NCBI GenBank assembly: GCA_977020255.1
Contig: CDROCS010002093.1
Coordinates: 434,001-498,000 of the forward strand
Reading direction: 5' to 3'
DNA length: 64,000 nucleotides
Source: Obrimoposthia wandeli
Taxonomy: Eukaryota
Below the pieces are notes generated by a model that made no database searches, had not been told where the DNA came from, and saw only the letters and a list, made by a program, of their open reading frames with translations. The position numbers and the translations under genes are program-made. Each line of letters begins with the position of its first letter. Positions within the stretch are counted from its first letter, which is position 1. This document shows positions 53,040 to 54,681 of the stretch, in pieces.

Positions 53040-53552
53040 TCAATTGTCCACGTCCGGGTTGTTCCTGTCATTTAGGAACAGCATGACCTGCTCCAGTGGC
53101 AGGTCCGGGAACGATGGGGTTTCCTCCTGGAACAGGGCCATCTGTTGTCGGAGACTGAGGTGCGGATTGGGGTGGAATAGGGTGGTGTAGCGTCCGTGCA
53201 CCCCGCGATTCTCGATCCACGTTTGACGACCGCGTTGCCACGAGCGGCAGTCGCGGCTTGATCGCCACCTCTCCCGGATGGAGAGTTTCGCGTCGCGACG
53301 GCGCGCGATGCACTCGGGGCATTGGCAATGTTCGCCACCAATGCAGCTGGTGGGCGAGCGAGTGCCCTTGGGTCGGCCTTGACACTGGAGCTTCCACTCC
53401 GCGAAGGGGGCACGGTACACCGGGCATGTGACGTGGCCCTCGGGCCGAGTTCGGGCCCACGTATAGAGGCACGCCTCGTAAAATTTGTGACGACAACCGA
53501 CAGGGGATGCCGATGTCGTCCAAATTTTCTCCAGGCAGACTGAGCACTTCAT
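53040..53552 (-). CDS. RING-H2-derived protein 3 (two zinc ligands replaced by Tyr) with CxCxxC motif
   Basis: CSVC..CRHKFYEAC..W..CPVY; CQCPEC; first ATG at 53552 directly after tttttgtgcag. Confidence 0.75.
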   Translation of the reverse strand: MKCSVCLEKIWTTSASPVGCRHKFYEACLYTWARTRPEGHVTCPVYRAPFAEWKLQCQGRPKGTRSPTSCIGGEHCQCPECIARRRDAKLSIRERWRSSRDCRSWQRGRQTWIENRGVHGRYTTLFHPNPHLSLRQQMALFQEETPSFPDLPLEQVMLFLNDRNNPDVDN

Positions 53553-53901
53553 CTGCACAAAATAATTACCTTTTCAATTTGGGGTTCGATTGTTTTCGTC
53601 GTTAGTTTACGAAGTTAATATTTTAGTTTCAAAATTAAAACCTTAGTGTTTAATCCTACCGAGTTTTGTTCCGATTTTAGGCATGTTTACACATTCATAC
53701 TAAGCATAAAAAGTGTCTTTTAGAATTTCAGTATAATAATTACAATTTCAATTAAACAACATACATAAAAATGGTAATGGTCGTTTTACAGTTTCACAAG
53801 ATTATACAATTATGATTACAATTATGGTAGCTAATTTATCGCGGTATGCGATACACAGGGTAGTTCATGATGTCACGTTCAAGTCAGAAAGTTACCTTCG
53901 G

Positions 53902-54198
53902 TTACTGCTGGTTGTTGGGCTGGCCTATACGTCGCTCCTCCACGCAGAACGAGCACCAGCAGTCGCAGATGTTTTTCCAGCAGTGTACTATGGGTACCAC
54001 TGCTTGGAGGCTGTCCCGGTTGTACACGTAGTGCACCGAGAAGGTTGCTCTGCACATCGGGCAGGTTGGGTAGTCTAGGGGATTGTTGCTGTTGGCAATT
54101 GGAATCCACGTCTCGAGGCATTCGATATGGAACTGGTGATCGCAGTTGTTGGGTTTGGTGTAGATGCTCTCGTAGCAGATGGAACATTCTCCAGACAT
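53902..54198 (-). CDS. RING-H2 E3 ligase-like protein 2 with CWCxxC motif
   Basis: CSIC..CDHQFHIECLETW..CPMC, complete C3H2C3 set. Confidence 0.88.
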   Translation of the reverse strand: MSGECSICYESIYTKPNNCDHQFHIECLETWIPIANSNNPLDYPTCPMCRATFSVHYVYNRDSLQAVVPIVHCWKNICDCWCSFCVEERRIGQPNNQQ

Positions 54199-54258
54199 TA
54201 CTGTGAGAGGGTTGATGTTGAATTTAGGCTCGATTGAGGACTGGTGATTGTGCGATGT

Positions 54259-54558
54259 TTACACAAAAGTGGTCGGATTTGGTCGTTCTGACAGACAGTA
54301 GTAACACCAACACTCTCTGAAATTCTTCCAATAGAATATCACCTGTATATATACATCCTCTTGGTTGGGTTCTATTATGACGAACTTTGTGAATTGTCTT
54401 CTGCATACAGGGCAACGAGGGTATGTTGGATGTACGAACTGTCCATAAGTTCTGATCCATGTTGATAAACATTCCTCGAGATGTAAATGGTTGCAGGTTT
54501 CGGGTCTTGTTCTTCGTTCGGTTAGATCTTCCAAACATATTGGGCATTCTTCGGACAT
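54259..54558 (-). CDS. RING-H2-like protein 1 with CWCxxC motif
   Basis: CPIC..PETCNHLHLEECLSTW..CPVC; second His displaced by one residue. Confidence 0.85.
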   Translation of the reverse strand: MSEECPICLEDLTERRTRPETCNHLHLEECLSTWIRTYGQFVHPTYPRCPVCRRQFTKFVIIEPNQEDVYIQVIFYWKNFRECWCYYCLSERPNPTTFV

Positions 54559-54681
54559 TCTAAATACATGATGATGATTAATTTCTACATGAGTTTTATA
54601 TATTTCTACTATTTGTACAATCGCTTCTAGATATTTCTACATATTTCACACACTAATTTATCTACAACCTCCTCTGACTTA

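Follow-up and report, generated by a model that had tools for sequence, protein, structure and literature searches.

How can three small genes be expressed when they lie at the 3' end of a giant retroelement? A subgenomic RNA seems to be needed, because the genes lie behind a polyprotein frame of ~16 kb. The available text of PMC6431247 does not address how genes behind the ~5,000-codon polyprotein of giant invertebrate retroelements are expressed. The question arises from the window (the whole stretch of DNA analysed here, 64,000 nucleotides), where three genes for RING proteins follow one another on the minus strand and each start codon comes shortly after an AG dinucleotide. A preliminary description read these AGs as alternative 3' splice sites joined to a common leader from the LTR and named SL trans-splicing as the alternative should the host be a flatworm.

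The retroelement and its copies

The element is an env-bearing gypsy LTR retrotransposon that measures ~22–23 kb from LTR to LTR (C742, C1842, C628), with the LTRs with TG...CA ends and the PR-RT-RH-INT order of the Ty3/gypsy class. The family contains at least 4,418 copies, a figure obtained by counting exact RING2 starts in the genome. For comparison with the window copy we used five further long stretches: three uninterrupted copies, one with an insertion and one truncated at its 5' end. The order in long copies is LTR, primer site, leader, ~16 kb of polyprotein pieces, RING1, RING2, RING3 and LTR. The polyprotein is broken in every copy seen. Where one copy is broken, ORFs of others bridge the break, and over ~16 kb they overlap; from this we infer a single frame.

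The 3' part of the giant polyprotein region occupies positions 54682..64000 (minus strand) of the window, as judged from Pfam matches and from overlapping ORFs of the five other long copies. It contains the end of gag, RING-PR-RT-RNase H, integrase, a dual-specificity phosphatase and membrane-type ORFs. The phosphatase domain (PF00782, E 4e-35; window 57426-59390, minus) comes after the integrase and lies inside the polyprotein frame in other copies. In a neighbouring copy, a mononegavirus-type fusion glycoprotein (PF24664, E 2e-47) and a BIR domain (PF00653) are located between gag and pol. This env/BIR segment was found in the same order in four of the five long copies, and for the fifth it lies in a separate neighbouring copy.

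The copy in the window has decayed; its polyprotein is in pieces, its leader and env segment are deleted, and relative to C1842 it has a deletion of 3,700 nt. Neither of its two large deletions is GT-AG and both were rejected as products of splicing. Just beyond the window is a second copy of the element in the opposite orientation, head to head with the window copy; this neighbour (L032-L058) retains env and BIR. The 3' LTR of the window copy (50845..52744, minus) is about 1.9 kb long, with TG...CA ends and a 4-nt target repeat, TATG. The likely poly(A) signal of this LTR is an AATAAA near 51054, and of 19 LTR ends compared, 17 have AATAAA or ATTAAA at a distance of about 210 nt from the terminus. 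Between copies the LTRs diverge greatly in their middles and are conserved over the last ~340 nt. In L032:1500-1540 and in four further long copies, the primer-binding site, which starts with TGG, lies 8 nt beyond the end of the 5' LTR, a longer gap than is usual. In one copy (L291, G000:C82:74001-84000) there is a tandem array with a unit of ~901 nt and six RING2 starts, each unit being composed of part of RING1, RING2 and most of the intron that follows RING2. Back-splicing was considered as the source of this array and rejected.

Elsewhere in the window, the plus strand at about 2190-31800 carries a host gene with GC-rich exons and ankyrin-like repeats, which we take to resemble SHANK; read by eye, this gene has weak donors such as GAG/GTTGGT. 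Right after the LTR, on the minus strand at 49900-50740, are fragments that we assume to resemble chaperonin-60 and Spt5, and a 153-aa ORF just past the LTR gave no Pfam match. The remains of a different retroelement, presumably BEL/Pao-like, lie at 45700-48900 (minus).

The RING genes and the AGs before their start codons

RING1 (54259..54558, minus) encodes 99 aa with a C-terminal CxCxxC motif and shows RING-H2-type spacing in other copies. RING2 (53902..54198, minus) encodes 98 aa here and 101 aa in most copies and has 53% GC. RING3 (53040..53552, minus), with 170 aa and 61% GC, is the fastest-changing of the three. All three ORFs match RING Pfam families, and the genes are paralogues. RING1 and RING2 score above the cut-off of zf-RING_2; RING3 scores just below it and passes zf-C3HC4. 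We found no close protein relatives of RING1, and RING2 matched generic RING proteins only. As members of the RING family, the three proteins are presumed to be ubiquitin ligases, with host defence or cell-death factors as their putative targets.

Upstream of RING1 is spacer 1 (54559..54681, minus), which is 123 nt long with 27% GC and ends in the candidate acceptor A1 (TAG) plus 1 nt. Spacer 1 also holds a repeated TGTAGAAA-like motif. Four to five such repeats were observed (window 54560-54681, minus), and these are kept in a divergent subfamily, subfamily B, unlike a TATA-like box. Spacer 2 (54199..54258, minus) is 60 nt long, is in frame with both RING1 and RING2 without a stop, and ends in the candidate acceptor A2 (CAG) plus 2 nt. 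Between the RING2 stop and a donor site is a 6-nt exon end, CCGAAG (53896..53901, minus), followed by a GT-AG intron of 343 nt with 30% GC (53553..53895, minus) that reaches to the RING3 ATG. RING2 and RING3, which flank this intron, are GC-rich by comparison, and six host exons read by eye in the window have 43–61% GC.

The ATG of RING1 at 54558 lies behind gtatttag/a (AG 54561-54560), that of RING2 at 54198 behind ccctctcacag/ta (AG 54202-54201), and that of RING3 at 53552 directly behind ttattttgtgcag/ (AG 53554-53553), all on the minus strand. All three AGs are thus present 0–2 nt before a start codon as had been described, but one base of the third motif had been miscopied, tttttgtgcag having been given for ttattttgtgcag.

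The arrangement had also been said to look non-random. In a natural full copy, read on the strand of the element, an AG ends 0–2 nt before 111 of 425 ATGs (26%), and a CAG or TAG does so before 42 of 425 (10%). The chance of three consecutive cases is about 0.018 for AG and 0.001 for CAG/TAG. These odds overstate the case because the three genes are paralogues and the draws are not independent. The three AGs are confirmed, but for this reason the pattern by itself is only moderately beyond chance. Likeness among the three upstream spacers was above that of shuffles in only one of nine comparisons.

An intron between RING2 and RING3

The element replicates via an RNA intermediate, so that a spliced transcript can end up in the genome as a DNA copy. 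Our approach was to search the genome for reverse-transcribed spliced copies, recognised as RING starts with unusual upstream letters. The first search with RING3 gave two matches; in L059 the end of RING2 is joined directly to the RING3 ATG. A junction pattern taken from L059 gave 39 matches, 30 of which were inspected, and eight copies were intron-less (L059, L102, L198-L203). In these eight genomic copies the segment corresponding to window 53895-53553 is missing exactly, with AAG/GTAACT as the donor at 53895 and TGCAG/ATG as the acceptor, A3, at 53553. A later search gave nine matches, namely six of the known intron-less copies and three others (L214, L215, L217) that were rejected as spliced copies, being point variants that retain the intron. 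For the two start variants of RING3, intron-bearing starts number at least 1,122 and at least 909, and the intron-less share is roughly 0.4% of counted DNA copies.

Trees were made from the flanks of the intron, 700 nt on its upstream side and 300 nt on its downstream side, with the intron omitted, for 40 rows; four rows (three with long branches and one truncated) were left out. The eight intron-less copies fell at about seven places among intron-bearing copies, as single tips save for one near-identical pair. A single clade of intron-less copies was rejected on both sides of the junction (p-AU 4e-55 and 3e-5). The cut is identical despite differences between the parent subfamilies in the last 10–27 bases of the intron; in the subfamily of L102, for example, the intron ends in TTTTCTCAT(A/C)CAG instead of TTTTGTGCAG. 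As a control we examined deletions in loci of up to 6 kb picked by the RING searches, a sample that tests the type of junction and not its frequency. Among 13 distinct deletion junctions of at least 40 nt, the intron loss was the sole exact GT-AG cut, and none of the other 12 was of this kind.

Two of the intron-less copies, L059 and L102, reach at least 13 kb upstream, through pol, and the spliced copies retain spacers 1 and 2 where RING1 and RING2 could be located. It follows that the RING3 splice takes place on long, packageable RNA. In the spliced copies the RING3 ATG is in frame and 6 nt behind the RING2 stop.

Together, these data indicate that A3 is almost certainly a real cis splice acceptor, because an exact GT-AG segment was lost at about seven places, a single origin is rejected, and the other deletions are not GT-AG. 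As far as genomic copies can tell, the donor proven for A3 is a local one, 6 nt after the RING2 stop, and not the LTR leader. The proposal of alternative 3' splice sites served from an LTR leader therefore stands in so far as the third AG works, but the donor shown for it is the one at 53895.

We also searched contigs from four sequencing runs (one sample, library unrecorded). Among the matches listed, none of 29 distinct joints was CT..AC, and no joint was found at any of the three AGs (15 of 304 matches listed in one search and 15 of 22 in another). These contigs are silent on expression, because the known intron junction is also absent among the listed joints.

Searches for splicing at A1 and A2 and for a leader donor

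The corresponding search at A1 gave 13 distinct loci, all of them point or small indel variants and none a spliced copy. At A2, no GT-AG spliced copy was found among 56 rows inspected (60 matches). The patterns used for exclusion at A1 and A2 do not cover every possible exon end. A2 is the endpoint of three distinct deletions (L065, L301 and L269/L294), none of which begins at GT. In L065 a fragment of an LTR is joined exactly at A2; this was rejected as splicing since no GT stands at that point in the matching LTR family. After sliding, L301 was flagged as GT..AG, but it was rejected as a splice since the copy retains one base more than such a cut would leave, and it was classed as a microhomology deletion, as were L269, L292 and L294. 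A local intron in spacer 1 with the weak donor GAG/GTTGTA was likewise rejected, for the searches should have caught it and did not. Local donors for A1 and A2 are unlikely in general, because spliced copies would be expected if such donors matched the proven one in activity.

The leader donor of the preliminary description did not emerge from the searches. No copy was found in which the LTR or the leader is joined to any of the three AGs via a GT donor, and no conserved strong donor was seen in the leader, where CAG/GT sites occur in two of six copies. Nor did a crude scan of 19 LTR ends find a consensus-like donor kept within the final 380 nt; the middle of the LTR aligns poorly. The polyprotein RNA contains about 20 donor-like sites, most of which are not alignable to subfamily B. 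In L299 (G000:C91:191247-194271) the leader is joined directly to the last ~120 nt of the polyprotein and the three RING genes; this junction was rejected as a splice, being a microhomology deletion without GT. The lack of leader-spliced copies is no refutation of leader splicing, because RNAs without a primer-binding or packaging site need leave no DNA.

Conservation of the proven and candidate splice sites

Conservation of the acceptors among copies, which had been suggested as a check, was seen in the sets of copies compared. Among 30 close rows with 91–100% identity, A1 is kept in 30 of 30, A2 in 30 of 30 and A3 in 29 of 30. In a contig-order sample of 30 loci, the values are 28 of the 28 located for A1, 29/30 for A2, 24/26 for A3 and 30/30 for the donor GT.

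Subfamily B is older, with an identity of about 60% in RING1 and RING2 and 35–45% in RING3. In this subfamily, TTTAG/A ATG is kept in 21 of the 23 rows containing the region, and the AG before RING2 is kept in 23 of 29, with the following 2 nt changed from TA to CA. The copies of subfamily B are decayed; they have CAG/ATG in 21/30 and the donor GT in 25/30. No intron-less copy was found in subfamily B (none of 12 matches was homologous). Between the subfamilies the donor region is alike at 14 of 15 nt and the middle of the intron at 65–89%. The last 27 nt of the intron are alike at only 12–16 of 27 positions, with CAG/ATG retained. Spacers 1 and 2 are 75% alike overall between subfamilies A and B, and because this likeness extends throughout the spacers, the kept AGs of A1 and A2 are weak evidence for their use.

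An overlapping second frame

A second frame overlaps RING1 and RING2 (53879..54547, minus). Its ATG is 11 nt after that of RING1, and in the window copy it is in two pieces. In five of five other long copies it is open over 225 codons (for example, L040:427-1101). It spans the donor and in spliced copies runs on into RING3 for about 100–160 further codons, reaching 318 codons in L102:849-1802. There is no majority stop in this frame through RING1, spacer 2 and RING2 in three subfamilies. Within RING1, a silent T that would stop the overlapping frame is used at 0 of 14 sites, compared with 21 of 52 elsewhere, and in polyprotein controls T occurs at 20–31% of such sites. This is suggestive of stop-avoidance in RING1. 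The frame has no codon-level conservation and no passing Pfam match, and synonymous and third-position changes in the RING frames exceed those of the overlapping frame. It may be a by-product.

Expression of the three RING genes

The reading that we prefer, with a probability of roughly 0.45, is that one far-upstream leader is cis-spliced onto RING1, RING2 or RING3 to give nested messengers. The AG before each RING gene is likely an alternative entry point, and the three RING genes are separate accessory genes at the 3' end of the element. We infer the use of A1 and A2 as acceptors; it is favoured because they precede paralogues of a gene with a proven AG and because the AGs are kept across diverged subfamilies. 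The local donor would be the 3' edge of an exon containing RING1 or RING2, which would be skipped in making the RING3 messenger, and a conserved donor after the RING2 stop fits naturally as such an internal-exon edge. On long RNAs the same donor is joined to A3, and these RNAs are then reverse-transcribed and integrated. The leader donor would lie upstream of the primer-binding or packaging signal, and RNAs spliced from it would leave no DNA copies. In an element that replicates via RNA, an intron with intact ends would be expected to vanish quickly if there were no need for the unspliced form. The persistence of this intron together with losses at single tips fits the idea that its acceptor is needed for another 5' partner; the intron would persist since A3 serves as an entry point. 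According to the available text of PMC5408684 and PMC3735527, LTR elements with extra ORFs typically use spliced mRNAs to express them.

It is possible, if somewhat doubtful, that host SL trans-splicing adds an SL at A1, A2 or A3, with A3 sometimes also cis-joined to the local donor. The premise of a flatworm host holds up: the multi-copy mitochondrial COX1 reads AAA as Asn and ATA as Ile, a code that fits a flatworm and is shared by echinoderms. (The assembly is mixed with foreign DNA, including many stop-free bacterial-type COX1 sequences and one other animal-type COX1, L196.) An SL would make a conserved far donor unnecessary, and SL-capped RNAs that lack R and the primer site would be expected to leave no DNA copies, as found. 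The spacers of 123 and 60 nt are below the 300-nt threshold for flatworm operons, the acceptors of parasitic flatworms often serve both cis- and trans-splicing, and some LTR and LINE loci contain partial SL sequences (PMC12582326, available text). However, the conserved local donor is awkward for this reading, because cis-splicing is strongly depleted at operon-resolving acceptors of parasitic flatworms (PMC12582326) and an upstream donor out-competes the SL (PMC4558846), as far as the accessible parts of these sources go. The donor-like sites within the polyprotein RNA also speak against it, as does the absence of AATAAA from spacers 1 and 2. Moreover, an AUG at the end of the SL would not share the reading frame of RING1 or RING2. 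Were the reading correct, the element would borrow the host SL at three acceptors, the third doubling as a cis site, and the overprinted frame may add a fourth product.

Another reading, which we regard as unlikely, is that only the RING2-RING3 intron is used and that one RNA is read as a chain by readthrough or re-start after stops. The RNA would come from an internal promoter before RING1 or be the full transcript, and splicing would set the RING3 start near the RING2 stop. It relies on the only splice with direct evidence, and both junctions (60 nt, and 6 nt after splicing) are in frame with no other stop in the three subfamilies tested, although two in-frame junctions are expected by chance in 1 of 9 cases and the 60-nt spacer lacks codon-like conservation. 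A promoter is hinted at by a TATATAAA and the repeated TGTAGAAA motifs in spacer 1, but the TATA box is missing in subfamily B, where the TAATG stop-start overlap also becomes CAATG. On this ground we rejected both ideas, a conserved TATA promoter ahead of RING1 and a TAATG stop-start ahead of RING2. Intron-less lineages should also have spread if the intron served nothing else, yet they are single tips; the weak point of this argument is that few copies are active.

Finally, it is very improbable that the 343-nt loss is a recurrent deletion by DNA processes or reverse transcriptase at the 2-nt AG microhomology, with the AGs coincidental through gene duplication: the evidence is all from DNA, the RING genes are paralogues and microhomology deletions ending at A2 do occur (L065, L301, L269/L294), but those three each have a different upstream partner, and in no case does the deletion start at GT; the eight losses, by contrast, all begin at one consensus-like GT in about seven lineages with differing acceptor flanks, for which two shared bases are insufficient.

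Comparison with known systems

Burro (GYPSM1) elements are giant planarian gypsy elements that have a polyprotein of about 4,900–5,100 aa and thousands of copies (PMC6431247, available text). The element described here is similar in that an env akin to the fusion glycoproteins of mononegaviruses lies between gag and pol, and in having BIR, RING and PR-RT-RH-INT domains, accessory ORFs tied to ubiquitination, and thousands of copies. Burro elements exceed 30 kb (PMC6431247), in contrast to the length of about 22–23 kb here. This element also differs in the one CCHC knuckle found, in the dual-specificity phosphatase after the integrase and in the three stand-alone RING genes downstream, with an intron; the available description of Burro in PMC6431247 is without downstream RING genes, phosphatase or splicing. 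In the pieces scanned we found no Pfam match to BCL2-like, ubiquitin/SUMO-like, MATH, ankyrin or dUTPase-like domains, some of which the review reports by HHpred only. We call the element Burro-like and not a member of Burro because it falls short of 30 kb. Grouping with Burro by RT and a host in the Dugesiidae would be further marks of a Burro element; the host here is placed by its mitochondrial code.

In complex retroviruses such as HIV and the foamy viruses, several 3' acceptors and a downstream donor yield accessory mRNAs. If A1 and A2 are used, the likeness would include nested messengers with a common 3' end, AGs near the start codons and an internal donor. The differences are that this is a gypsy-type element, that its env is within the polyprotein and that no major leader donor was found.

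Flatworm SL operons, as described in the available parts of PMC12582326 and PMC8629364, are similar in having short same-strand spacers, each closing with an acceptor shortly ahead of the following start codon. Unlike these operons, which consist of host genes, the RING cluster lies within the genomic RNA of a retroelement, has no poly(A) signals in its spacers and has a conserved cis donor. We found no report of SL use by a retroelement for subgenomic RNA, a point on which the primary Burro paper and its supplement may bear. Nor did we find a report of paralogous accessory genes that are separated by an intron and follow a Burro-like polyprotein; the primary papers on Burro, on Ogre splicing and on planarian SL3 may bear on this.

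Splicing in LTR elements is itself already known. In the available text of PMC3735527 and PMC5408684, the plant Ty3/gypsy element Ogre, copia, BARE1 and env-class gypsy elements likewise have the host spliceosome act on their RNA; Ogre splices between ORFs, and env-class gypsy elements express extra 3' ORFs from spliced messages. In those systems splicing serves gag, pol or a single ORF3/env (PMC3735527, PMC5408684), whereas in the element described here the intron is between two of three paralogous accessory genes and there is a candidate acceptor before each of them. The element thus supplies a proven intron among accessory genes and the exact coordinates of three junctions, in a high-copy family whose splicing is preserved in genomic DNA and can be read there even without RNA data.
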